Shown in pieces: positions 63 to 17,531 of a stretch of 17,531 nucleotides of DNA. Made by a program: the position numbers and the translations under genes. Under the pieces are notes generated by a model. The model did no database searches and was not told the DNA's origin. It saw only the letters and a list, made by a program, of their open reading frames with translations. How positions within the stretch are numbered: the stretch's first letter is position 1; each line of letters begins with the position of its first letter. Source of the DNA: a virus; the UHGV virus genome UHGV-0065625; one strand, 5' to 3'.

Positions 63-668
63 GTGATTGTCTGGCTGCTCTGGTGTGGTGGCTTCTTCAG
101 TCAGGCCCGCGCAGCGCAGCCTCCGCAGGCTGCGCTGCAGTATCGCGATGATGTGATCCGTAATGCCCGGCTTGAATGGGGACTGTCTGCGCCGGTGGCA
201 GATTTCGCCGCGCAACTGCATCAGGAAAGCGGCTGGCGACCTGATGCGGTCTCGCCGGCTGGTGCTCAGGGACTGGCGCAGTTCATGCCTGCCACTGCCG
301 ACTGGATAAGTCAGCTGATGCCGGGACTTAACAGCCGTGAGCCGTTTAATCCGGCATGGGCCATCCGGGCGCTGGTCAGCTATGACCGCTGGCTGTGGCA
401 GCGCGTCAGCGCCGCCAACGACTGCGAGCGTATGGCCATGACACTGTCAGGCTATAACGGTGGTCTGGGCTGGGTACAACGGGACAGGCGGCTTGCATCA
501 CAGAAAGGTCTGGACAGCACCCGCTGGTTCGGACATGTCGCCACGGTGAATGCCGGACGCAATGCGGCCAGCTGGCGGGAGAACCGCCATTATCCGCAGC
601 GCATCCTGCGCGAACTGGCACCGCGATATCTCACATGGGGAGGCAGCAGTTGTGTGGCATCTGGTTAA
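63..668 (+). CDS. Endolysin, lytic transglycosylase (SLT domain) with hydrophobic N-terminal segment (possible signal-anchor-release type)
   Basis: Translation contains the SLT-type signature ...HQESGW... followed by GAQGLAQFMPATA (catalytic Glu-Ser then G-L-x-Q-F-M-P-x-T). N-terminus MIVWLLWCGGFFSQARAAQ is hydrophobic and Gly-rich. GTG start at 63 preceded by AGG; the frame is open to the window start, so the true start could lie upstream. Confidence 0.8.
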   Translation: MIVWLLWCGGFFSQARAAQPPQAALQYRDDVIRNARLEWGLSAPVADFAAQLHQESGWRPDAVSPAGAQGLAQFMPATADWISQLMPGLNSREPFNPAWAIRALVSYDRWLWQRVSAANDCERMAMTLSGYNGGLGWVQRDRRLASQKGLDSTRWFGHVATVNAGRNAASWRENRHYPQRILRELAPRYLTWGGSSCVASG

Positions 669-1936: not shown

Positions 1937-2481
1937 TGGCCAGACGCAGCACAATAGAAAAGCTGCCGGAAGACGTGCGCCGCTGGCTTGAACGGGCGCT
2001 GACTGAATCCGGCTTCAGCGGGTATAACGAGCTGGAGTCCCTGCTGCGTGAGCGGGGATACGTCATCAGCAAATCCGCTATCCATCGCTATGGACAGAAG
2101 ATTGAGCGCCGCTATGGTGCTATCCGTGCGGCGACAGAAGCGGCCCGCATGCTGACCGAAGGCGCAGCAGACGATCAGGATGCGCGTTCGGAGGCTGTGA
2201 TAGCCCTTATTCAGACCGAGCTGTTCGAGAGTATTGTCCAGTTGCAGGAGGCGGAAGAAGGCGAAGTCGATCCTAAAGAACGCGTGGCCCTGCTGTCGAA
2301 GGTGGCGAAGAATGTGGCTACGCTGTCACGCGCGTCCGTCAACCTCAAAAAGTTCCAGTCTGAAGTGCGGGCCAGAGCGCAGCAGGCAGCCAGCAACGCA
2401 GAGAAAATTGCCCGTAAGGGCGGACTGTCAAGCGACGCAGTACAGGCGCTTCGTCGCGAGATTCTGGGGATTGCCACATGA
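1936..2481 (+). CDS. Terminase small subunit-like DNA-binding protein (Mu gp27-like position)
   Basis: 181-codon ORF immediately upstream of, and overlapping, the large terminase gene (ATGA). Basic N-terminal region (RRSTIEKLPEDVRRWLERAL) is consistent with a DNA-recognition subunit. Assignment by position and composition. Confidence 0.55.
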   Translation: MARRSTIEKLPEDVRRWLERALTESGFSGYNELESLLRERGYVISKSAIHRYGQKIERRYGAIRAATEAARMLTEGAADDQDARSEAVIALIQTELFESIVQLQEAEEGEVDPKERVALLSKVAKNVATLSRASVNLKKFQSEVRARAQQAASNAEKIARKGGLSSDAVQALRREILGIAT

Positions 2482-4073
2482 CAAAATCATCCGGAGTGAT
2501 TTTAAACGCCGCTGGCGGCGGCCCCGAAGGGATGAGTCCCATGGACGGGAGGAATAACCTTGCTCCCGTTTTGCCTGATACCTCGGCGCTGGATGCCCCT
2601 CCCGTTCTGTTGCCTTACCAGCAGCGCTGGGTGGCAGACACCTCTCCGCTTAAGGTGATAGAAAAGAGCCGTCGTACCGGTATTACATGGGCTGAGGCAT
2701 CCGATAACGTACTGACCGCCGCCTCTTCTGCGCCAGCAGGCGGGATGAATGTGTATTACATCGCTTATAACCAGGACATGACCGTCGAATACATTCAGGC
2801 GTGTGCGATGTGGGCACGGGCATTCAACTATGCGGCCAGTGAAATTGAAGAAGGATTCTGGGAAGAGGACGACGACGACAAACACATCAGGACTTACACC
2901 ATCAAATTTCCTGACTCCGGCTTTCGTATTGTTGCGCTCTCCAGCCGCCCGTCTAACCTGCGTGGCCGTCAGGGTATTATTGTTATCGACGAAGCGGCGT
3001 TCCATGAGCAACTGGACGAACTGCTGAAAGCGGCGCTGGCGATGCTTATCTGGGGGGGGAAGGTACACGTTATCTCCACCCATAACGGTGACGACAATCC
3101 GTTCAATACGCTTATCGGGGATATCCGTGCCGGACGTCAGGGAGGCAGCATACATCGCATCACTTTCCGGGAAGCCGTATCTGAGGGGCTGTTCCGGCGC
3201 GTCTGTCTGCGCACCGGGAAGGAATGGTCGGAGGCCTCCGAGCAGGCCTGGATGGCATCGGTGTACAAATTCTACGGTGCCGGCGCATCCGAAGAGCTTG
3301 ACTGTATTCCGGCCAACGGTGGCGGTGCCTGGCTGTCCCGTGCCCTGATAGAGTCCCGCATGTCCGCTGATACGCCGGTATTGCGTCTGACCTGCAAGGA
3401 AGGTTATGAACTGCTGTCTGATGAGGTTCGCTTCCGCGAGACGCAGGACTGGCTTGATGAGTATCTGAAACCATTGCTGGAGGCACTCCCCACTGATGCC
3501 CGCTCTTTCCTGGGGCGCGACTTTGGCCGTAGCGGTGATTTGTCGGTGGACTATCCCCTGCTGCAGGAGAAGAACCTGGTACGACGCGTGCCATTCGTAC
3601 TGGAGCTGCGTAACGTGCCGTTCAGACAGCAGGAGCAAATCACCTGGTATCTGATGGATGGCCTGCCCGGTCTGCTGGGTGCAGCGTTTGATGCCCGTGG
3701 TAATGGTGCCTATCTGGCTGAATACGCCATGCAGCGCTACGGCTCCAGCCGGATTCAGCAGGTGATGCCAACCGAAGGCTGGTACAGGGAGCATATGCCT
3801 CCGGTCAAAGCTGCACTGGAAGACGGTAACCTGGTGGACTTACCAAAGGATGAAGACACACTGGATGACCTGCGGGCCGTTCAGGTGGTGAACGGTGTCC
3901 CCCGCGTACCGGAGCAACGCTCAAAAGCAAAGGCTGACGGTGGTAAACGCCACGGGGATTCAGCCATCGCACTGGCGCTGGCGTATTTCGCCAGCCGTGA
4001 AATTAACAAAGGGCCGGTGAAGGCAAGCTCACGCCGTCGTCGTCAGGCGGCCCGTATGCTGGAGGGATTCTGA
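2478..4073 (+). CDS. Terminase large subunit
   Basis: 531 codons. Walker-B-like hydrophobic run ending in DE (GIIVIDEAAF) and an upstream P-loop-like segment (KSRRTGIT); C-terminal nuclease-sized domain. Sits between the small-terminase-like gene and the portal gene. Confidence 0.8.
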   Translation: MTKSSGVILNAAGGGPEGMSPMDGRNNLAPVLPDTSALDAPPVLLPYQQRWVADTSPLKVIEKSRRTGITWAEASDNVLTAASSAPAGGMNVYYIAYNQDMTVEYIQACAMWARAFNYAASEIEEGFWEEDDDDKHIRTYTIKFPDSGFRIVALSSRPSNLRGRQGIIVIDEAAFHEQLDELLKAALAMLIWGGKVHVISTHNGDDNPFNTLIGDIRAGRQGGSIHRITFREAVSEGLFRRVCLRTGKEWSEASEQAWMASVYKFYGAGASEELDCIPANGGGAWLSRALIESRMSADTPVLRLTCKEGYELLSDEVRFRETQDWLDEYLKPLLEALPTDARSFLGRDFGRSGDLSVDYPLLQEKNLVRRVPFVLELRNVPFRQQEQITWYLMDGLPGLLGAAFDARGNGAYLAEYAMQRYGSSRIQQVMPTEGWYREHMPPVKAALEDGNLVDLPKDEDTLDDLRAVQVVNGVPRVPEQRSKAKADGGKRHGDSAIALALAYFASREINKGPVKASSRRRRQAARMLEGF

Positions 4074-5566
4074 TGGCGAGGGGTATCTGGGTTTCACCCG
4101 ATGAATTTGTTGCTTTTTCTGAGCCTCAGAAATCACTGACCGCGCAGATTGCCTCCCGCAGCCGCGCGATCGACTTTTACGGACTGGGCATGTATCTGCC
4201 CAATCCTGATCCCATTCTCAAGGCTCAGGGACGGGATATCCGTATCTACCGCGAACTGCGCACCGACCCGCTGGTCGGAGGCTGTATCCGCAGACGTAAA
4301 GCAGCGCTCAAATCGCTGGAGCGTGGACTGGAGCGCGGTCACGCTTCTGCCCGGGTCTTCCGTTTCATCCGCGACATGCTCGACGATCTGGATCTGTCCC
4401 GCATCATCGGTGAGATGAGCGATGCCGTGCTCTACGGGTATCAGCCCTGTGAAATCATGTGGGGCCGTTCGGTCAGGGCGTGGGCGGTGACGGATATTGT
4501 CGGCAAACCGCCTGAGTGGTTTCAGTTTGATACGGACAACTGCCTGCGCTTCCGGGCGCGTGATGCGGGTGTGGAGGGTGAGCTGCTGTCACCGTCAAAA
4601 TTCGTGGTGCCGGCACAGGATGCCTCGTATGACAATCCTTACGGTTTCCCGGACCTGTCCATGTGCTTCTGGCCGGTCGCCTTCAAGAAAGGCGGGATGA
4701 AATTCTGGCTCCGCTTTGCCGAAAAGTTTGGCTCCCCGTGGGTGATCGGTAAGCACCCGAGGGGTGCAAATGATGCAGAGATTGAAAAACTGCTGGACTC
4801 CATGGAGCAGATGGTGGAGGACGCTGTGGCCGCCATCCCCGATGACAGCAGCATTGAACTCAAAGCCGCGGATGGCAAGGCGGACAGCAGCGAGGTATTC
4901 CGCGAGCTGATCACGCTGTCACGCAGTGAGATCTCCATTGCATTACTCGGTCAGAATCAGACCACGGAAGCGAACAGTAACAAGGCCTCTGCACAGGCCG
5001 GGCTGGAGGTGACGGCTGATATCCGCGATGCGGATGCGGACATCATTCAGGCGGCAGTGAATCAGGTCATCAGAACGGTGGTCACCCTGAACTTCGGCGA
5101 TGTGCCGTGTCCGGTCTGGGCCATGTGGGAACAGGAGGCCATTGATGACACCCGTGCCACCCGCGACGAAAAACTCACCCGCGCGGGACTACGCCTGACC
5201 CCGCAGTACTTCATGCGGGAGTACCAGCTGCAGGAGGGGGATATTGACCTCTCTGATGCACCGGTTGCGGACGGGGCAGTGCCTGCGGAGTTTGCCGAGG
5301 CGATAAGCGCCGATCATGATGCACAACAGCAGCTTGACGACGCGCTGGACATTCTGATGAACGGAGGTGTGTTAAATGGCACGCTGGAACCCGTCCTGGC
5401 ACCTCTGTTCAGGCGGGTCGAAAACGGGGTTAACCCGTCTGAGCTGCTGGGCGAACTGGCGGAGCTCTACCCTCAGATGAACACGGACGATCTGCAGGAG
5501 CGGCTGGCCCGCATTCTCTTTGTGGCAAATATCTGGGGGCGTCTGCATGAGCGTGACAACGGCTGA
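4073..5566 (+). CDS. Portal protein (Mu gp29-like)
   Basis: 497-codon ORF directly after the large terminase gene (TGATG overlap), followed by the F-like gene. Size and position are typical of Mu-type portals. No sequence motif confirmed. Confidence 0.7.
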   Translation: MARGIWVSPDEFVAFSEPQKSLTAQIASRSRAIDFYGLGMYLPNPDPILKAQGRDIRIYRELRTDPLVGGCIRRRKAALKSLERGLERGHASARVFRFIRDMLDDLDLSRIIGEMSDAVLYGYQPCEIMWGRSVRAWAVTDIVGKPPEWFQFDTDNCLRFRARDAGVEGELLSPSKFVVPAQDASYDNPYGFPDLSMCFWPVAFKKGGMKFWLRFAEKFGSPWVIGKHPRGANDAEIEKLLDSMEQMVEDAVAAIPDDSSIELKAADGKADSSEVFRELITLSRSEISIALLGQNQTTEANSNKASAQAGLEVTADIRDADADIIQAAVNQVIRTVVTLNFGDVPCPVWAMWEQEAIDDTRATRDEKLTRAGLRLTPQYFMREYQLQEGDIDLSDAPVADGAVPAEFAEAISADHDAQQQLDDALDILMNGGVLNGTLEPVLAPLFRRVENGVNPSELLGELAELYPQMNTDDLQERLARILFVANIWGRLHERDNG

Positions 5567-6368
5567 ACTGGCGTACTGCATGACGCTTCCCCCGAAGCGG
5601 GCAGTCAGCTACCTGAAGTCCAAAGGGTATCAGATTACCTGGGACTGGGAGGAGATGTGGCAGGAAGCCCATGCCCGCGCCTTTACCGTCGCTAAAGTGA
5701 CCCGCCTGGATATCCTGGAAGATATTCGCGGGGCACTGCAGCAGGCTGTCGATGAAGGAAAAACCGATCGCTGGTTCCGGCAGGCGCTGGAGCCGGTGCT
5801 GAAGCGTAAGGGATGGTGGGGACCACGTGACACGACTGACCCGGTAACGGGTGAGCCGGTCACCATTCAGCAGGGCAGTCCGTGGCGGCTCGATACCATC
5901 TTTCGCACCAATATGTCCGTACTCTACAGCGCCGGTCGTTGGGCGGAGCAGATGGAAAACGTCGACGACAGGCCGTACTGGATGTATACCGGCATCAACG
6001 ACAGCCATACCCGCAGGAGCCATCTGGCGCTGCATGGTCTGGTGCTGCGCTGGGATGACCCGTTCTGGCAGGCATTTTACCCGCCGAACGGCTGGCGCTG
6101 CCGCTGTAGTGTGATTGCCCTGAGTGCGGCGGATGTACGTGCCCGTGGCCTGAAGGTTATCAGCTCCGGCTCTGTCATGGGCCAGGAACTGAAACTGGTC
6201 TCAGAGAAAACCGGCGAAATGCGGAACGTGGCCACCTTTAATACCGGCACCACGAAGGTGACCACCGACGTCGGCTGGTCTTATGCACCGGGGGCAGCAT
6301 ACCGTCCCGACCTGGCCCGCTATCAGGGTACGTTTCAGCCACTGGCACAACAGGAACTGAGAGGATAA
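5547..6368 (+). CDS. Head morphogenesis protein, Mu F / SPP1 gp7 family
   Basis: Contains the family-typical Cys motif PPNGWRCRCSV. Start set at ATG 5547 (GGGGG 7 nt upstream) rather than the TTG at 5520 reported by the ORF track. Overlaps the portal 3' end by 20 nt. Confidence 0.8.
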   Translation: MSVTTAELAYCMTLPPKRAVSYLKSKGYQITWDWEEMWQEAHARAFTVAKVTRLDILEDIRGALQQAVDEGKTDRWFRQALEPVLKRKGWWGPRDTTDPVTGEPVTIQQGSPWRLDTIFRTNMSVLYSAGRWAEQMENVDDRPYWMYTGINDSHTRRSHLALHGLVLRWDDPFWQAFYPPNGWRCRCSVIALSAADVRARGLKVISSGSVMGQELKLVSEKTGEMRNVATFNTGTTKVTTDVGWSYAPGAAYRPDLARYQGTFQPLAQQELRG

Positions 6369-6929: not shown

Positions 6930-7043
6930 TTCACCGCATTGCTTTCCCTGTCCTTCTCCCCTGATGTTTTCTAAAGCAGATTAAAATCGCCGGGCCTGCA
7001 TTTCTCACAAACTGTCTCCGACAACATAACGCGGGACAGCAAA
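6930..7043 (+). promoter_or_regulatory. Candidate late promoter region upstream of the protease/scaffold gene
   Basis: 214-bp non-coding gap in an otherwise gapless operon. TAAAAT at 6982-6987 is a -10-like hexamer with no obvious -35, as expected for activator-dependent late promoters. In Mu the I gene has its own late promoter. Weak, positional inference. Confidence 0.25.
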
Positions 7044-8159
7044 ATGTCAGCCATTCACATTTTTAAAGCCGGTACTCATACCGATATGCACGGCAAAAAA
7101 CTGCCGTTCACGCCAGACGATCTTGCCGCCTGCGTGAAAGCCTATGACCCGTCCGTCCATGAAGCACCACTCGTGATTGGTCATCCCAGAACGGAAGACC
7201 CGGCGTGGGGCTGGGTGAAAGCCCTGTCGCTCAGCGGCGTCGATCTGATGGCAGAGCCTGCCCAGTTGGACCCGCAGTTTGCTGAGATGGTCACCGACGG
7301 ACGATTCAAAAAAGTGTCCGCCTCTTTCTACCTCCCGGATTCACCGTCCAATCCGAAGCCCGGCGTGCTCTACCTGCGCCATGTGGGCTTTCTCGGGGCA
7401 CAGCCACCTTCCGTCAAGGGGCTGAAACAGGTGTCCTTCAGTGAGCAGGAAGAAGGTGTGGTGGAGTTCGCCGACTGGCAGGCCATCACGAATGCCTCCC
7501 TGTGGGGAAAGCTGCGCGATTTTCTGATCGCCCGCTTCAGTCTGGACGAAGCAGAAAAAGTCCTGCCGGAATGGCAGCTCAACAATCTGCGCGAAGAGGC
7601 GTACCGCGACACACCGTCGCAGGATGCAGCAGGTGCACAATTCAGTGAGACAGGCCAGGTGCCGTCTTCCGCAAGTAACGAGGAATCATCAATGACAAAA
7701 GAAGAGATTGAAGCCCTTCAGGAGGAGAACCGCCGCCTGAAGCAGCAGGCTGCTGATCGCGATGCGCGTGATGCACAGGCCAGACAGGAGCAACTGCATA
7801 AGGACAATGTGGCCTTTGCAGAAAAACTGGTCGCAGAGGGGCGTCTGGCTCCCCGCGCCTCCTCCGTGGTGGTTGCCCTGCTGGATGCCGTCGCCGGTGG
7901 CGACAAGCCGGTGGAGTTTGCTGAGGGGGAAAGCCGCACGCCGCTGGCCACCGCCTTCCGTTCATTGCTCTCCGACGGGGAGCCGGTGATGAATTTCGCC
8001 GAACAGGCCACAAAGGAGCGTGTCGGCGACACGGTGAAGGTGGATGTGGCGGAGTTTGCGGAAGCCGATCCTGAGCGTCTGGCCCTGCATCAGAAAGCAG
8101 TGGCCCTGTCCAAAAAAGAAGGCATCAGCTATGAGGCTGCTGTCGCACGCTGCCTGTAA
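7044..8159 (+). CDS. Prohead protease / scaffold protein (Mu I-like)
   Basis: 371-codon ORF preceding the putative major head gene. Acidic, coiled-coil-like C-terminal third (EEIEALQEENRRLKQQAADRDARDAQARQEQL) typical of scaffold domains. Confidence 0.65.
   Translation: MSAIHIFKAGTHTDMHGKKLPFTPDDLAACVKAYDPSVHEAPLVIGHPRTEDPAWGWVKALSLSGVDLMAEPAQLDPQFAEMVTDGRFKKVSASFYLPDSPSNPKPGVLYLRHVGFLGAQPPSVKGLKQVSFSEQEEGVVEFADWQAITNASLWGKLRDFLIARFSLDEAEKVLPEWQLNNLREEAYRDTPSQDAAGAQFSETGQVPSSASNEESSMTKEEIEALQEENRRLKQQAADRDARDAQARQEQLHKDNVAFAEKLVAEGRLAPRASSVVVALLDAVAGGDKPVEFAEGESRTPLATAFRSLLSDGEPVMNFAEQATKERVGDTVKVDVAEFAEADPERLALHQKAVALSKKEGISYEAAVARCL
7692..8159 (+). CDS. Nested in-frame scaffold protein (Mu Z-like) from an internal start within the protease gene
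   Basis: Internal ATG at 7692 (MTKEEIEALQEE...) preceded by GAGGA at 7680-7684 with 7-nt spacing. Mu makes scaffold Z from an internal start in I. Confidence 0.45.
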   Translation: MTKEEIEALQEENRRLKQQAADRDARDAQARQEQLHKDNVAFAEKLVAEGRLAPRASSVVVALLDAVAGGDKPVEFAEGESRTPLATAFRSLLSDGEPVMNFAEQATKERVGDTVKVDVAEFAEADPERLALHQKAVALSKKEGISYEAAVARCL

Positions 8160-8173
8160 TTTAAGGAGAAATC

Positions 8174-8602
8174 ATGTCTGATTACTTAAAAGGTAAACGT
8201 GTCGTTGATCCGGTACTGACCAGTATCGCCCGAGGCTATAAAAATGCCGCATTCATTGGCGAACGTATTTTCCCCGTCGTGCTGACGGACAAGGAAGGCG
8301 TGCGTGTGCCGACCTTCGGGAAAACCGCCTTTGTGGAATATGACACTGAGCGTGCCGTCGGGGCGGACAGCAATGTTCTGGTCCGTGAGAAAACCGGCAC
8401 GCTTGATCTGGTGCTGGGTGAGCACGATCTGGCTGCGCCGGTGGACTATCGCGAGCAGGCGGAGTCCATGTTTAACGAGGAGAGCAAGGCCATCCGTCGC
8501 GCCACGAATGGCGTGAATCTGCGCCGTGAACTTATCGCCGCCCGTCTGGCTCAGGATGAAAAGGTCTACCGTACGCGAGAAGCTGCCTCAGCTGCAGGTT
8601 GA
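8174..8602 (+). pseudogene. Putative major head subunit, N-terminal 142 codons only (frame break or deletion)
   Basis: Strongest ribosome-binding site in the window (AAGGAG, 5-nt spacing to ATG 8174), directly after the scaffold gene where the major capsid gene is expected. The ORF is far too short for a capsid protein and overlaps the next ORF in another frame. Confidence 0.4.
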
Positions 8603-8996
8603 GTACTTCCCGGAAAAGCCGTCCGAATACCGCCTCAATCATTCTGTCGGGGCGTTGCTGCTGAGCTATGCAGGATCGCGTTTCGACAGGCCGGATGATA
8701 CCGGTGCGGTGATCCAGCCTCAGACTATCCAGCTCTGCGTCACGGTGGTCTTCCGACAGCTCAACGGTAAAAAAGGGGCGATTAATGTCCTGGATGCTGT
8801 CCGCCGCATTCTTGGTGGCTACACCCCGCCCGGGTGCCGCCGCCGTATCTGGCTGACCCGCGAGGTGTTTATCGGTGAAGTCAGGGGGCTGTGGCAGTAC
8901 GCCCTCGACTTCGCGACTGAAAGCGTCTTTATCGAAGACAGCGATTTACCGTCCGGCCCGCTGTTAACTGAAGTGAACTATGAGGAAAGCGAGTGA
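8526..8996 (+). CDS. Structural protein, possibly head-tail joining (Mu gp37-like); 5' end uncertain (GTG 8526 or ATG 8556)
   Basis: Frame-3 ORF overlapping the upstream ORF by 77 bp. Contains ...EYFPEKPSEYRLNHSVGALLLSYAGSRFD..., which resembles my recollection of small Mu-like virion proteins. Unverified. Confidence 0.35.
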   Translation: MNLSPPVWLRMKRSTVREKLPQLQVEYFPEKPSEYRLNHSVGALLLSYAGSRFDRPDDTGAVIQPQTIQLCVTVVFRQLNGKKGAINVLDAVRRILGGYTPPGCRRRIWLTREVFIGEVRGLWQYALDFATESVFIEDSDLPSGPLLTEVNYEESE

Positions 8997-9247
8997 TGAA
9001 AGAATACCGCTATTCCGGCCCGGCCAGCGGCGTCACGCTGTCGGACGGAACCGAAATCCTGCTCTGGCCGGGGAAGACTGTTTCCCTGCCGGAGGAGCAT
9101 GACTACGTGAAGGTACTGGTGGCGCTGAAGCATCTGACGCCGGTATCTGAAGAAATTAAACCCGCCGGCACACCGGCTGTGCAGTCACCAAAGCGCAGGA
9201 ACGGCGGTGACAGCGAGGTGAAAACGGAGGACGCCCATGTCAGCTAA
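8993..9247 (+). CDS. Small hypothetical virion-associated protein (Mu gp38-like position)
   Basis: 84-codon ORF between the head-joining-like gene and the sheath gene. The likely start is ATG 8996, preceded by AGGAAAG. Confidence 0.5.
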   Translation: MMKEYRYSGPASGVTLSDGTEILLWPGKTVSLPEEHDYVKVLVALKHLTPVSEEIKPAGTPAVQSPKRRNGGDSEVKTEDAHVS

Positions 9248-10664
9248 CTATCTGCATGGTCCGGAAACCATTGAAGTGGAAAACGGTGCCCGCCCGGTTA
9301 AAACGGTGAAATCTGCCGTTATTGGCCTGATTGGTACCGCACCAATGGGGGATGTCAATACGCTGGTACAGTGCCTGTCTGAGAAAGACGCTGCGGCATT
9401 TGGCAGCCAGTTCACCGGCTTTACCATTCCACAGGCGCTGGATGCGATTTATGACCATGGTGCAGGCACCGTTCTGGTCATTAACGTACTCGATCCGTCT
9501 GTGCATAAAACCGCTGTGGTCAGTGAGAATGTGTCGTTCGACAAGGCGACAGGCAGAGCCCGGCTGGCTAATCCGGTGGTCGCGCAGCTGGTACTGAAAC
9601 CGGACAGCGACGGTCAGCCTTATGTTGAAGGTCAGGACTACTCGCTTGATGCACAGACCGGGGTGATTACTAACCTGGGTAAAAGCATTGCTGCAGATGC
9701 AACGGTGAAGGCCAGCTATAACTATGCTGATCCGACCAAAGTCACCCCGGCTGATATCATCGGTACCGTTAACGCTGCAGGCAACCGTACCGGCATGAAG
9801 CTGCTTAACGACAGTTTTAACCTGTTTGGCTACTTCGCCAAAATCCTGATTGCTCCGGTATTCTGCACCCAGAACAGCGTCTCGGTTGAGCTTATCGCCA
9901 TGGCTGAGAAACTGGGAGCAGTAACCTATATTGATGCGCCGGTTGGTACCACTTTTGCGCAGGCTCTGGCGGGACGAGGCCCGGAAGGCACCATTAACTT
10001 TAATACCAGCTCTGACCGTGTCCGCCTGTGCTACCCGCATGTGAAGGTATATGACCCGGTGACGAACACGGAACGTCTGGAGCCACTGAGCCAGCGTGCG
10101 GCGGGCCTGCGTGCCAAAGTCGACCTGGACAAAGGGTACTGGTGGTCATCCTCAAATCAGGAAATTCTGGGGATCACCGGCGTGGAGCGCCAGCTGTCGG
10201 CAATGATTGACGATCCGCAGAGCGAGGTGAACCTGCTTAACGAACAGGGGATCACCACGGTATTCAGCAGTTACGGCAGCGGCCTTCGTCTGTGGGGTAA
10301 CCGGACGGCAGCATGGCCAACGGTCACCCATATGCGTAACTTTGAGAACGTTCGCCGCACCGGTGATGTGATCAATGAGTCCATTCGTTACTTCAGCCAG
10401 CAGTACATCGACATGCCGATTACTCAGGCGCTGATTGATGCACTGACGGAGTCGGTCAACGCCTACGGTCGCAAAATGACTGGTGATGGCGCGGTACTGG
10501 GCTTCCGTTGCTGGTTTGATCCGGCCCGCAATCCGGAAACGGAGCTGGCCGCCGGGCACCTGTTGCTGAGCTACAAATATACGCCACCACCGCCGCTGGA
10601 GCGACTGACGTTTGAGACTGAGATCACCTCGGAATACCTGTTAACCCTGAAAGGGGGCAACTGA
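9237..10664 (+). CDS. Contractile tail sheath protein
   Basis: 475-codon ORF with GGAGGA ribosome-binding site, immediately followed (1-nt overlap) by a 173-codon tube-sized gene. This sheath/tube pairing and size are typical of Mu-like and P2-like myophage tails. Confidence 0.8.
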   Translation: MSANYLHGPETIEVENGARPVKTVKSAVIGLIGTAPMGDVNTLVQCLSEKDAAAFGSQFTGFTIPQALDAIYDHGAGTVLVINVLDPSVHKTAVVSENVSFDKATGRARLANPVVAQLVLKPDSDGQPYVEGQDYSLDAQTGVITNLGKSIAADATVKASYNYADPTKVTPADIIGTVNAAGNRTGMKLLNDSFNLFGYFAKILIAPVFCTQNSVSVELIAMAEKLGAVTYIDAPVGTTFAQALAGRGPEGTINFNTSSDRVRLCYPHVKVYDPVTNTERLEPLSQRAAGLRAKVDLDKGYWWSSSNQEILGITGVERQLSAMIDDPQSEVNLLNEQGITTVFSSYGSGLRLWGNRTAAWPTVTHMRNFENVRRTGDVINESIRYFSQQYIDMPITQALIDALTESVNAYGRKMTGDGAVLGFRCWFDPARNPETELAAGHLLLSYKYTPPPPLERLTFETEITSEYLLTLKGGN

Positions 10665-11185
10665 TGTCAAAGATTGAGATAAACCGAATCACGAATGCCA
10701 ACATCTATCTGGATGGTACTAACCTGCTGGGACGGGCTGAGGAGGTTAAACTCCCCGATGTCTCCATGATTATGCAGGAACACAAGGCACTGGGGATGGT
10801 GGGTAAGGTGGAACTCCCGGCTGGTTTTGACAAACTGGAAGGCGAAATCAAATGGAACAGCTTTTACCGCGATGCGATGCTGTCTGCCGCGAACCCGTAC
10901 AAGTCGCTGGCGCTGCAGTGTCGCTCCAGCGTCCAGCGCTACAGCTCGCAGGGGCTGATCGACGAAATCCCGCTGGTCACCTTCCTGACAATTATGTTCA
11001 AGAAGAACCCGCTGGGGACGTTTAAACAGCACGAGAACGCCGAGTTCTCCAGTAGCTTCACCTGCACGTATATCAGACAGGTACTGGATGGTGAAGAGTT
11101 GCTGCAACTGGACTATCTGGCCAACATCTTCCGCGTCGGTGGCGTTGATCAACTGACTGACTATCGGATCAATATCGGGGGCTGA
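10664..11185 (+). CDS. Tail tube protein
   Basis: 173 codons; start overlaps the sheath stop (TGATG). Size and position match tube proteins. Confidence 0.75.
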   Translation: MSKIEINRITNANIYLDGTNLLGRAEEVKLPDVSMIMQEHKALGMVGKVELPAGFDKLEGEIKWNSFYRDAMLSAANPYKSLALQCRSSVQRYSSQGLIDEIPLVTFLTIMFKKNPLGTFKQHENAEFSSSFTCTYIRQVLDGEELLQLDYLANIFRVGGVDQLTDYRINIGG

Positions 11186-11187
11186 CG

Positions 11188-11469
11188 GTGAGTGTTGAAC
11201 TGACTGACAAAGGAGGGCGATGTGCGTCACTGGGCATGTCAAATGGTACGTGGTTTACCCTCCTTGATATTCCGGGGGTGGAAACCCTTTTTAATACCCG
11301 TAAAACCAATGACCCGATTGACTGCACACGTTCAAAGGCCCGCAAACTGGCCGATTTGATTGAAGCATGGGAGCCGCCCGACCACTGGTTCTCCGGCATC
11401 GGCAAATCTGAGGGAAAGGCGCTTCTCATCGCTTTCCTGCGTAACTGCAAGGGTTTTCGCACTTGCTGA
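11188..11469 (+). CDS. Hypothetical 93-codon protein between tube and chaperone genes; possible moron
   Basis: ORF from GTG 11188 (GGGGG 7 nt upstream), Cys- and Trp-containing. Followed by a hairpin plus T-rich tract. No equivalent gene is expected at this position in Mu. Confidence 0.35.
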   Translation: MSVELTDKGGRCASLGMSNGTWFTLLDIPGVETLFNTRKTNDPIDCTRSKARKLADLIEAWEPPDHWFSGIGKSEGKALLIAFLRNCKGFRTC

Positions 11470-11475
11470 CATCAC

Positions 11476-11500
11476 AGGGGCTCCGGCCCCTTCTTCTTAA
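11476..11500 (+). terminator. Candidate rho-independent terminator after the 93-codon ORF
   Basis: AGGGGC-tccg-GCCCCT stem-loop (11476-11491) followed by TCTTCTTAATCTCCTTT. Confidence 0.45.
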
Positions 11501-11566
11501 TCTCCTTTAATATCCGTCACGTCCACCGCCAGACATACTGCTCTGAATTTACAAAGGAGTATGATC

Positions 11567-11902
11567 ATGTCACAGACCCAGTCCGATACTTTTACGCTGT
11601 CTTATCCTTTCACCACTGCTGCAGGTACCAGAATTGAACAGATTGAACTGAAACGCCTGACAGTAAAAGACCTGAAGCAGGTGCGCAAAATCAACAAAGA
11701 CCCGGCAGACTGGGACGAACCACTGATTGCCCGTAGCACCGGTATCCTCCCGGAAGACCTCGATAACATGGATCTTGCCGACTATATGGAGCTGCAGAAA
11801 CGATTTCAGAAAATCACTGGGCTGGGCAAGAGCGACAAAAACACTGATGCAGGCGCAGGGCCTGCTGGCGAGATGGTTCAGGTTTCAGCCGGGGGAGATT
11901 GA
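11567..11902 (+). CDS. Tail assembly chaperone (short, unshifted product)
   Basis: Small acidic ORF between the tube and tape-measure genes. Start set at ATG 11567 (AAAGGAG 7 nt upstream) rather than ATG 11561, which has only 1-nt spacing. Ends at TGA 11900-11902 immediately after a G5 run. Confidence 0.6.
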   Translation: MSQTQSDTFTLSYPFTTAAGTRIEQIELKRLTVKDLKQVRKINKDPADWDEPLIARSTGILPEDLDNMDLADYMELQKRFQKITGLGKSDKNTDAGAGPAGEMVQVSAGGD

Positions 11903-11984
11903 TGCCCTCGATACTGACGATCTGGAGATGTGGCTGGAGCAGGCTGAAGAGCAAATCAAAAGCGAGTTCGGCGACAATCAGTAA
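11567..11984 (+). CDS. Tail assembly chaperone, frameshift-extended fusion product (predicted +1 or -2 slip at GGGGG 11891-11895)
   Basis: The +1 frame is open across the G5 run and encodes a protein-like acidic tail EIDALDTDDLEMWLEQAEEQIKSEFGDNQ ending at TAA 11982-11984. The upstream part of that frame (track ORF 11727..) reads as out-of-frame junk. A conserved frameshift in chaperone genes upstream of the tape-measure gene is established. Confidence 0.4.
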
Positions 11985-11997
11985 CAACGTATCACTT

Positions 11998-12020
11998 AAC
12001 AGCCGCCAGTCGCGGCTGTT
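11998..12020 (+). other. Perfect 9-bp-stem hairpin (AACAGCCGC-cagtc-GCGGCTGTT) between chaperone and tape-measure genes
   Basis: Exact inverted repeat read from sequence; no adjacent U-tract, but a T7 run lies about 30 nt downstream. Confidence 0.4.
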
Positions 12021-12076
12021 CTGCATGGGGTTCAGACACTTCCCTTCCGTTTTTTTGCTTTCAGAGGATAGCCACC

Positions 12077-12583
12077 GTGGCCAGTGAATTTTCAGTCGGC
12101 GTCATTATTGGCGGCATTGTCGGGAGCAGCTTCCGCTCAGCCGTCAGTGGCACCCGACGCGCCCTTGATTCCCTTGGTGATACCTCCCGCCGTCTGCAGG
12201 AACGCCAGAATGCCTTAACCCGGGCAACAGAACGTTATGGTCAACTGGGTTCTTCCCGGATGCAGCATCTCAACAGCGAGTTGCTGCGGGTAAGCCGCAC
12301 CATGGAGCAAATTGAACGTCAGCAGCGCCGTCTGTCAGCAGTATCAGCCACCGGTGATGCGTTGAAGGCTAACCGCCTGGCGCTCTATGGTCAGGGTGCA
12401 GAAACCTATGCTATTGGCAGAACGCTGGGCGCACCGGTCATGGCCTCGGTTAAACAATATGCCTCGTTTGAATCACAGTTGCGGGATATCAGTGTCACAG
12501 GAGACCTGGATGCAAAACAGGAACGTGCAATTGGCCTGGCTATCAGACAGGCCTCGCTGAAGGTTACGGTACATTCTCAATAG
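12077..12583 (+). pseudogene. Tail tape-measure protein, N-terminal fragment (168 codons)
   Basis: N-terminus MASEFSVGVIIGGIVGSSFRSAVSG... and the ...YASFESQLRDISVTGDLD... segment resemble tape-measure N-termini. Far too short for a functional ruler protein; terminates 8-10 codons after the apparent junction with hub-like sequence. Confidence 0.55.
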
Positions 12584-13437
12584 ACGAGATCGAAGTGAGT
12601 TCGCCCGCGTCCGTTGTCGCTATCCGTGGGGTGGCCACCTCGGTTAACAGTGCTCTGCGGACTAAATCCAGCCGTGGTTTTGAGAACACCACGCTGGCAG
12701 CTGTTGCGGGTCGGATTGCCAGAAAGCACCGGCTGAAACTGGTGGGCAGCATTGAGTCCATCAGAATCGACCGGGTGACCCAGTATGCTGAAACCGACGT
12801 GGGTTTTCTGCGCCGGCTGGCCAGCGAGTATGGTTATGCAGTGAAAGTGGTCAGTGACCAGTTGATTTTTTCTCATCTGGCCACATTGCGCAGTCAGGAG
12901 CCGGTCAGGCAGTTAAAACCGCAGGATGTGGCCCACTTTTCCCTGCGTGACACCATCAACCGGGTCTATAAATCTGCAAAGGTAAAACACCAGAAAAGCA
13001 GCAGTAAAAAACTGATCGTCTACGAAGCTGATGGTGGTACCCGTGAAAGCGACAAAAAGCTCAAAGGCGGTAAGGTTACCAGCGCTGACTCACTTAAAGT
13101 TAACAGCCGCGTCAGCGACCCGGACAGTGCTCGGATTAAAGCGGATTCAGCACTGGCCAGACATAACGAATACCAGCAGAACGGCTCCCTGACGCTGACG
13201 GGAACGCCTCAACTGACAGCAGGCAACAAAATTGAACTGGTGGGCTTTGGACAATTATCCGGTCCATGGCTGATAATCACTGCCCGCCATGCGTTTGAGC
13301 GTAACAGCGGCTACACCACAGAGCTGGAAGTGGCACGGGGGCCAGTCACAAGAGGGAAAAAACAAAAAACTCAGAAACTCACGGTTTATCACCCGGATGG
13401 CAGTACATCGACGGTGATTAAGGAGAAGAAAAAATGA
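12472..13437 (+). pseudogene. Baseplate hub / late control D-like protein (P2 gpD, Mu gp44-like), 5'-truncated
   Basis: Frame open from 12472 with no start until GTG 12595. Recognisable hub-family similarity begins at ...EGYGTFSIDEIEVS... (about 12559) and continues (TTLAAVAGRIARKHRL, FLRRLASEYGYAVKV). The N-terminal ~75 residues expected for this family are missing. Confidence 0.55.
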
Positions 13438-14027: not shown

Positions 14028-14903
14028 ATGCGGTTATCAAGATCCTTATGTAAAGTAGTTGGCGATGTCATTGCTAACTCAGGCTCTCATGCAGCTTTAG
14101 ATACGTTATTTCTTACTTCGGGAGCACCAGGAAACCCTCCGGCAGGATCTCATAGTACAAAATGGAAAGACTGGTTATTTCTTGCAGGGCAAGATCCAGA
14201 TACAGATAGTCTGGCAGTTCTGGGCGGAGTAATTGAGGAGTTTATGGATTTACCTCCAAAAGAAGGTACTCCCGAATATGCAGAATGGAAGGAAAAACGA
14301 GACAGAATTGAAGCTGTGTTACAAGAGAATGGACTTAGATATTATCGTTTTGGTCGAGTGTTGCCTGAAGGCCACATCCCGTCACACAATATGGATTACC
14401 CAGAGACCATAATTACTTATCAACAGCCAGTAATGCCAGAAAAAGTTGAGAACTTACTGGAAAGGCTGGTCAAAGGCTTACAGCGAGCAATGCATCCACT
14501 TACTCATAGGCGAAAAGGAAGCCAGTCATTATCTTTTAGCAATGAATATGACGTGCAAGACCTTCTCCATGCATTGCTCAGACCATGGGTTCAGGACATC
14601 CGCCCAGAAGAGTTTACTCCAAGTTATGCTGGTTCAAGTACTCGAATGGATTTTTTGTTACCTGCGCATAAATTAGTACTGGAAACCAAAATTGTTCGTG
14701 ATCGTTCTCATGCAAAGAAAATCGGCGATGAACTTATTATCGATATAGAGCATTATCGTCGGCACTCTGATTGCAAAAATCTCTGGTGTGTCATCTACGA
14801 TCCGAACCAGCTTATTACTAATTCTGAGGGGCTGAAATCTGATCTTGAGGGGAAGAGAGTTTCTAAAGACGGAGAACTTATCGTCAAGGTTTTCGTAATT
14901 TAA
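14028..14903 (+). CDS. Cargo protein with C-terminal PD-(D/E)xK nuclease-like domain and N-terminal domain of unknown function; candidate defence/abortive-infection effector
   Basis: 291 codons. Motif read from translation: acidic helix NEYDVQDLLHAL (E173/D175), then RMD208FLLP, then LVLE219-T-K221 with 10-residue D-to-E spacing. No Walker motif in the N-terminal ~165 residues. Nuclease assignment is motif-based inference. Confidence 0.6.
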   Translation: MRLSRSLCKVVGDVIANSGSHAALDTLFLTSGAPGNPPAGSHSTKWKDWLFLAGQDPDTDSLAVLGGVIEEFMDLPPKEGTPEYAEWKEKRDRIEAVLQENGLRYYRFGRVLPEGHIPSHNMDYPETIITYQQPVMPEKVENLLERLVKGLQRAMHPLTHRRKGSQSLSFSNEYDVQDLLHALLRPWVQDIRPEEFTPSYAGSSTRMDFLLPAHKLVLETKIVRDRSHAKKIGDELIIDIEHYRRHSDCKNLWCVIYDPNQLITNSEGLKSDLEGKRVSKDGELIVKVFVI

Positions 14904-14974: not shown

Positions 14975-15322
14975 ATGAAAACGACCTCAGTATTCTGGCA
15001 ACCGGCTCTGCAGGCTCCCGGCGAAATCGTCCGGGGGCTGGATGATATCCAGCAGTCCATCCAGATCATCCTGCGGACTCCCCGCGGCAGCGACCCGCAT
15101 CGCCCAGAGTTCGGCAGCAATCTGCACCTTTATATCGACTGGCCTGTCGACCGGGCCATTCCGCATGTGGTTCGCGAATCCGTCGATGCCATCAGGCGCT
15201 GGGAACCCCGCTGCCAGCTTATGTCGGTTAAACCCGCCGTCGACGGCGAACATCTTACGCTCCGGGTGAGCTGGAAAGGCTCAGACGGACAACCCCGTAC
15301 TCAGGAACTGCTATGGCGCTGA
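14975..15322 (+). CDS. Baseplate wedge protein W (GPW/gp25 lysozyme-like family)
   Basis: 115 codons containing ...IILRTPRGSDPHRPEFGSNL..., matching the family pattern as I recall it. Followed by an overlapping J-like gene. Confidence 0.75.
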   Translation: MKTTSVFWQPALQAPGEIVRGLDDIQQSIQIILRTPRGSDPHRPEFGSNLHLYIDWPVDRAIPHVVRESVDAIRRWEPRCQLMSVKPAVDGEHLTLRVSWKGSDGQPRTQELLWR

Positions 15323-16989: not shown

Positions 16990-17531
16990 ATGGCAAATCT
17001 ACCTGAAACCCCACAGTGGGAAGACGGCATCTACCAGATTGAGGTCTCTGACCCCGTTCTGGGCGGGCCTGACGGAATTTCTAACCGTCAGGGTAAACAA
17101 CTGGCCAGCCGCACGCTGTACCTGAAGCAACAGGTTGAAAAAGGCGGGGCTGACCTTGCGAAACACATCGCGGCAGCAGACCCGCATGCCCAGTATGCAC
17201 CGAAAGCCAGTCCGGCATTCACCGGCACACCAACAGCACCTACACCTGCAAATGGCGATAACAGCAAAAAGCTGGCGACGACGGAGTTTGTGGCCAAAGC
17301 ACTTGCGGCGCTTGCAGGCAGCGCCCCTGAGACACTGGATACGCTTAAAGAGCTGGCTGACGCTCTCGGTAATGATCCAAACTTTGCGACTACGGTACTG
17401 AACAAGCTGGCGGAAAAGCTGGCTAAAGACCAGAACGGCGCAGATATTCCTGATCCTGCGCTGTTTGTCAAAAACCTTGGTTTGGGGGAAGGCTCTGCAC
17501 TGCCCGTTGGTGTGCCCGTTCCGTGGCCCTC
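16990..17531 (+). CDS. Tail fibre protein, 5' partial (runs off the window end)
   Basis: Frame open from ATG 16990 to the window end. Contains the conserved fibre segment ...ASPAFTGTPTAPTPA...TTEFVAKALAALAGSAPETLDTLKELADALGNDPNFATTV..., closely matching the equivalent stretch of P2 H-type fibres as I recall it. Confidence 0.75.
   Translation, partial: MANLPETPQWEDGIYQIEVSDPVLGGPDGISNRQGKQLASRTLYLKQQVEKGGADLAKHIAAADPHAQYAPKASPAFTGTPTAPTPANGDNSKKLATTEFVAKALAALAGSAPETLDTLKELADALGNDPNFATTVLNKLAEKLAKDQNGADIPDPALFVKNLGLGEGSALPVGVPVPWP

Follow-up and report, generated by a model that had tools for sequence, protein, structure and literature searches.

A 1,391-bp deletion interrupts the major head gene of a BcepMu-like prophage of Escherichia coli

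The virus genome UHGV-0065625, a stretch of 17,531 nucleotides that we call the window throughout, poses a question between its head protease and its tail sheath: why is the place of the major capsid gene taken by two short open reading frames (ORFs) that overlap in different frames? The original prediction, made from the sequence letters, placed an ATG-initiated ORF of 142 aa at 8174–8602 and a GTG-initiated ORF of 156 aa at 8526–8996, both on the plus strand and the second one shifted by +1 with respect to the first, and exactly this layout was recovered. It read the head gene as broken by a deletion or frameshift and kept a sequencing indel as a caveat. Alignment to intact relatives reveals that 1,391 bp are missing at a single junction, and we consider it very likely, taking deletion and decay together as one explanation, that the window belongs to a defective BcepMu-like transposable prophage of an E. 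coli lineage, now in decay, and represents its late (morphogenesis) region. The affected region comprises the following features:

7044–8159, plus strand: head maturation protease/scaffold gene, intact, 371 aa, equivalent of Mu I and BcepMu gp32 (phrog_976, E 6e-163; length equal in PhiKM; position of BcepMu32)
8164–8169, plus strand: Shine–Dalgarno motif AAGGAG of the major head gene (read from the sequence; duplex energy with the anti-SD −9.2 kcal/mol)
8174–8602, plus strand: truncated major head gene, with 134 native codons (8174–8575), 8 out-of-frame codons and TGA (DNA alignments; phrog_1005)
8574/8575: deletion junction, 1,391 bp missing (alignments to PhiKM, the KP12 record and the E. 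coli 3-72 prophage)
8574–8996, plus strand: Gp37 remnant, codons 15–154 of 154, native start and coupled gp36 stop/start lost (Pfam Gp37, phrog_209)
8996–9247, plus strand: conserved 83-aa gene, intact, equivalent of BcepMu gp38 (phrog_895, E 8e-35 for the PhiKM homologue; position as in PhiKM, KP12, 3-72 and BcepMu)
9237–10664, plus strand: tail sheath gene, intact, 475 aa (Pfam Phage_sheath_1 and Phage_sheath_1C in the identical gene of sister contig L004; the PhiKM and 3-72 annotations likewise give tail sheath)

The nearest relative of the window is the intact prophage of E. coli 3-72 (NZ_CP155528.1, about 1,768–1,806 kb), which is 99.99 % identical to it at the DNA level apart from the first 53 bases of the window; Escherichia phage PhiKM (PQ738613.1) shares 95–98 % DNA identity. 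The intact form of this prophage family is carried by 639 of the 5,426 complete E. coli genomes, and in strain 3-72 it is inserted at a disrupted SWIM zinc-finger gene adjoining yehP. A segment of the 3-72 prophage (L013, NZ_CP155528.1 1797035–1806342), which lies outside the window, bounded on its left by an insertion sequence (IS), encodes a repressor/HTH region, a DDE transposase, an ExeA (MuB-like) ATPase, Gam, gp16 and Mor, and this confirms the transposable, BcepMu-like lifestyle of the family. In the window itself, a P2-type contractile tail module comes after a Mu-type head module (Gp27, large terminase, Portal_Mu, Mu_F and G), as is characteristic of BcepMu-like phages (genus Bcepmuvirus and relatives), and the gene order of its family matches that of the type phage, Burkholderia phage BcepMu (NC_005882.1). 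Pfam searches on the genes of sister contig L004 that are identical to those of the window returned Phage_Mu_Gp27, Portal_Mu, Phage_Mu_F, Phage_sheath_1, Phage_tube, Phage_GPD, Baseplate_J and Tail_P2_I. A literature search on the PhiKM/BcepMu-like E. coli prophage family retrieved nothing specific to it.

Three further observations concern the tail module and its surroundings. Between baseplate genes V and W lies an intact accessory gene (moron) of 291 aa (14028–14903, plus strand), whose product features a C-terminal DpnII-MboI-type restriction endonuclease domain (Pfam E 4e-47) and resembles the PADLOC 'Aga_Helical-REase' effector models (E 2e-30), making it, by these similarities, a possible defence or exclusion gene of the prophage family. 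The last 61 bases of the window (17471–17531) recur twice, inverted, further downstream in the intact 3-72 prophage (L003 27189–27249 and 27628–27688), where the repeats adjoin a recombinase gene, an arrangement that fits a Gin/Min-type invertible tail-fibre segment. In a public draft contig, an 88-aa ORF on the minus strand (14987–15253) is called over the plus-strand GPW/gp25 baseplate gene (14975–15322) and is probably a mis-call.

In the intact relatives PhiKM, KP12 and 3-72, the genes following the protease/scaffold up to the sheath encode proteins of 317, 112, 148, 154 and 83 aa, the counterparts of BcepMu genes 34–38. The first is the major head protein, the length of which stays within 307–317 aa across PhiKM, KP12, 3-72 and BcepMu: its PhiKM homologue covers positions 2–314 of the 315 in phrog_1005 (E 9e-130), the intact protein aligns end to end with the major head proteins of BcepMu, phiE255, RcapMu and B3, and its residues 8–313 align to PDB 3bjq. 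The original prediction had assumed a head protein of the Mu-like T family, and this assignment has to be replaced by the BcepMu gp34/Phage_cap_E lineage; Phage_cap_E is the sole Pfam match, obtained for the intact homologue at 23.6 bits with a cutoff of 22.9. At E ≤ 0.01 no match to a Mu gpT Pfam family appeared, whether for the window fragment or for the 317-aa intact homologue, and the BcepMu record annotates gp34 as 'Mu T equivalent' by position only. The 112-aa protein is a cement protein (DUF2190, Pfam Phage_cement_2), the 148-aa protein belongs to Phage_Mu_Gp36 and is labelled head–tail adaptor in PHROGs, and the 154-aa protein is a Gp37 family member. The 83-aa gene had been described as an 84-codon gene before the sheath, a count that starts from GTG 8993.

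A megablast search of window positions 7000–9300 against phage records gave three matches, each split into two pieces that together span the entire query. Where the window has 2,301 bp, intact relatives have 3,692 bp (about 3,690 bp per megablast match), so the earlier impression that there is too little room for a full capsid gene together with the head-completion genes was correct. In the alignment to PhiKM (L001), window 7000–8574 corresponds to L001 3001–4575 at 98.2 % identity and window 8572–9300 to L001 5964–6692 at 94.7 %. In the alignment to the 3-72 prophage (L003), the left arm ends at L003 11521 at 99.99 % identity, and window 8574–12566 corresponds to L003 12912–16904. The deletion reading of the interrupted head gene is thus borne out by a clean gap of 1,391 bp against PhiKM, KP12 and 3-72 alike. 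As 1,391 leaves a remainder of two when divided by three, the deletion shifted the reading frame. The two arms share a single nucleotide (C) at the junction when compared with the 3-72 prophage and three (TAC) when compared with PhiKM, and this near absence of homology marks the event as illegitimate recombination.

The 1,391 bp comprised two genes in their entirety, those for the 112-aa cement/decoration protein and the 148-aa gp36-like adaptor, together with codons 135–317 of the major head gene on one side and codons 1–14 of Gp37 on the other. On the capsid side, the first 401 nt of the gene, directly after the phrog_976 protease, are 98–100 % identical in DNA to the relatives: codons 1–133 and two further bases are native, and codon 134 is rebuilt as ACG, encoding Thr as in the parent. 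The last eight codons of ORF 8174–8602 are Gp37 DNA read in the wrong frame, ending with TGA at 8600–8602. The predicted frame change is therefore present, although not after 142 codons as had been proposed, since the break follows codon 134, between 8574 and 8575. The 142-aa product matches phrog_1005 'major head protein' from position 2 to 139 of 315 (E 7e-52), as compared to 2–314 for the intact PhiKM protein, and gave no Pfam match. Judged by these comparisons, the ORF is a fragment of the BcepMu-type major head family (phrog_1005; Phage_cap_E, HK97 fold) and not a complete member. It may still be translated, with most of the HK97 fold predicted to be absent from the product. Its ribosome-binding site is indeed strong, as originally noted, but it is not the best in the window, as five other gene starts have an equal or stronger anti-SD duplex (−9.5 to −11.5 kcal/mol).

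The second ORF mirrors this situation. It opens with 16 codons of capsid DNA read out of frame; Gp37 codon 15 is found at 8574–8576 (CGC), and from there the gene is native to its stop at 8996. The remnant matches Pfam PF09646 over profile positions 6–143 of 143 (E 9e-59; 197.8 bits against a gathering cutoff of 27.3), where the intact protein covers 1–143, and phrog_209 over 14–162, where the intact protein covers 1–162. Gene callers begin the remnant at ATG 8556, giving a 146-aa form that NCBI names 'Gp37 family protein [Escherichia coli]', and the mechanical ORF begins at GTG 8526; essentially no Shine–Dalgarno sequence precedes either GTG 8526 or ATG 8556 (−1.5 and −2.6 kcal/mol, respectively). 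A complete Gp37 protein has its own start coupled to the gp36 stop, and both are missing here. Having lost its translational coupling to gp36, the Gp37 remnant is probably silent.

These alignments also bear on the question whether the locus could be intact after all, the two ORFs being either genuine small overlapping genes or the two halves of a capsid–Gp37 fusion made by programmed +1 frameshifting that is normal in this phage group. An overlap of 77 nt in adjacent frames and a strong ribosome-binding site on the first ORF would suit such an arrangement, but all intact relatives, BcepMu included, encode a single capsid protein of 307–317 aa and a separate Gp37 of 154 aa with two genes in between, and the overlap in the window consists of the DNA of each gene read in the frame of the other. 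For the prediction to fail, both ORFs would have had to align end to end with complete small proteins; the opposite was found, as both cover their family profiles only in part. We therefore give genuine overlapping genes or a programmed frameshift next to no chance.

A deletion of this kind might still have been produced by sequencing or assembly, as a homopolymer indel or a collapsed assembly can mimic a frame change in an intact capsid gene. In favour of such an error, the junction is absent from every complete E. coli genome searched: a 40-mer spanning 8574/8575 was found in none of the 5,426. It likewise had no match in the GTDB species-representative genomes, a result that is expected and uninformative at one genome per species. 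The lesion, however, is no mere indel, and the nine independent assemblies that we fetched (L004–L012) share one and the same junction 40-mer; they comprise one NCBI draft genome (GCA_028634895.1), six Logan read-set assemblies and two ENA gut metagenomes, so that the same junction was assembled independently from at least six Logan read sets, two ENA metagenomes and one NCBI draft. The NCBI contig differs from the full window by one mismatch, and the exact 142-aa product occurs on about 22 contigs in 32 collection blocks (NCBI, Logan and ENA). Because the same junction recurs in nine independent contigs and its product on about 22, the deletion is a real, inherited lesion of an E. coli lineage, the carriers of which are represented by draft or metagenome assemblies only. 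The probability of a sequencing or assembly error is practically nil, and the sequencing indel kept as a caveat by the original prediction is excluded by a lesion of 1.4 kb with one and the same junction throughout. As the sister contigs were found by exact-protein look-up, the unchanged 142-aa sequence in all of them says nothing about selection.

The events at this locus can be pictured as follows. An illegitimate recombination event with 1–3 nt of microhomology joined capsid codon 134 to Gp37 codon 15 in differing frames. The capsid gene lost its C-terminal 183 codons and Gp37 its start, and the genes for the cement/decoration protein and the Mu gp36-like head–tail adaptor disappeared altogether. 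A ribosome initiating at the intact binding site of the capsid gene would then make a 142-aa dead-end product stopping at 8602, and the Gp37 remnant is left without a start signal of its own.

The head region is not the only damaged part of the element, as comparison with the 3-72 prophage uncovers the following additional lesions:

1–53: end of an IS2-like element of the IS3 family, 53 bases (the intact prophage is matched only from window position 54)
12077–12583, plus strand: tape measure remnant, about 163 of 821 codons and then out of frame (gene start at L003 16415; the intact protein matches Pfam PhageMin_Tail)
12565/12566: second deletion junction, 3,343 bp missing, 2-nt 'TA' microhomology (alignment to the 3-72 prophage)
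12595–13437, plus strand: baseplate hub gpD remnant, 280 of 384 codons, N-terminus lost (Pfam Phage_GPD; L003 19964–21118)

Through the second deletion, the first approximately 163 tape measure codons are fused out of frame to gpD codon 95; everything in between is gone, comprising the remainder of the tape measure gene, GpU, tail protein X and codons 1–94 of gpD. Its junction 40-mer is present in seven sister contigs, with no carrier among the 5,426 complete E. coli genomes. The insertion sequence end, by its resemblance to the left inverted repeat of IS2 presumably that of IS2, cuts into the SLT transglycosylase (endolysin) gene at window 63–668, leaving the lysis region of the prophage truncated. 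Positions 1–111 of L004, which include this end, match a multi-copy 'IS3 family transposase' sequence in 4,693 E. coli genomes, and many sister contigs break at the IS repeat. Some sister contigs bear extra, nested deletions, corresponding to window 9267–12216 (2,950 bp; L005 and L007–L010), 2062–5609 (3,548 bp; L007) and 9067–9097 (31 bp; L009), and in L005 and L008 the terminase gene contains a 1-bp indel.

With regard to the gene set of a functional prophage or tailocin, capsid, cement, gp36 and Gp37 are disrupted on the head side and tape measure, GpU, X and gpD on the tail side. A tailocin, in which the head is lost and the tail kept, was considered as well and is ruled out by the deletion of tape measure, GpU, X and gpD. 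Judged from its gene content, the element would as a consequence of the 1,391-bp and 3,343-bp deletions be unable to form capsids or tails and should be neither an inducible phage nor a tailocin. The two ORFs at the capsid locus would accordingly appear to be non-functional leftovers, not genes with a new role.

A retained role of the remnant would be the remaining way to account for its persistence in many isolates. Such a domesticated element would be under selection, either with the capsid fragment acting as a dominant-negative assembly inhibitor against related incoming phages or with the element kept for its nuclease-gene cargo (14028–14903), and it is in line with this proposal that the capsid fragment keeps its strong ribosome-binding site and that the nuclease-domain moron is intact and similar to defence effectors. 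The sister contigs, however, go on losing late genes with differing deletion endpoints, which resembles neutral decay, and the 134-residue fragment lacks most HK97-fold domains, as judged from the 8–313 alignment of the intact protein to PDB 3bjq. We regard domestication as very unlikely. In its most specific form, in which the 142-aa fragment is translated and poisons the capsid assembly of superinfecting PhiKM/BcepMu-like phages, or the element is kept as a nuclease defence locus, it is an extremely improbable speculation. Deletion followed by decay remains our reading of the locus: it is ordinary cryptic-prophage decay in a defective member of a known BcepMu-like group and calls for no new biology.

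For annotation, this means that the ORFs 8174–8602 and 8526/8556–8996 should be recorded as pseudogenes, the one a fragment of the major head gene and the other of Gp37, and the prophage as defective; public records presently list hypothetical proteins, or 'Gp37 family protein' for the 146-aa form. The nested deletions in the sister isolates constitute a small, dated decay series within one E. coli lineage and might be used as a lineage marker.

Compared with its closest intact relatives, PhiKM and the 3-72 prophage, the window agrees in gene order and in the genes on either flank, but it lacks the 1,391 bp spanning the capsid C-terminus, cement, gp36 and the Gp37 start as well as the 3,343 bp spanning tape measure, GpU, X and the gpD start, and it carries an IS end in the SLT gene. 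BcepMu shows the same succession of protease, major head, DUF2190, gp36 adaptor, gp37, gp38 and sheath in its genes 32–39, and its gp34 is 44 % identical over the full length to the intact E. coli capsid protein; the sequence relationship is nevertheless distant, the host is a different one and the copy in the window is defective. Cryptic E. coli prophages, for example those of K-12, are known to decay through out-of-frame deletions at junctions that share few or no bases, through IS insertion and by losing their morphogenesis genes step by step. The element in the window decays in the same mode as this class, from which it differs in belonging to a BcepMu-like transposable family.
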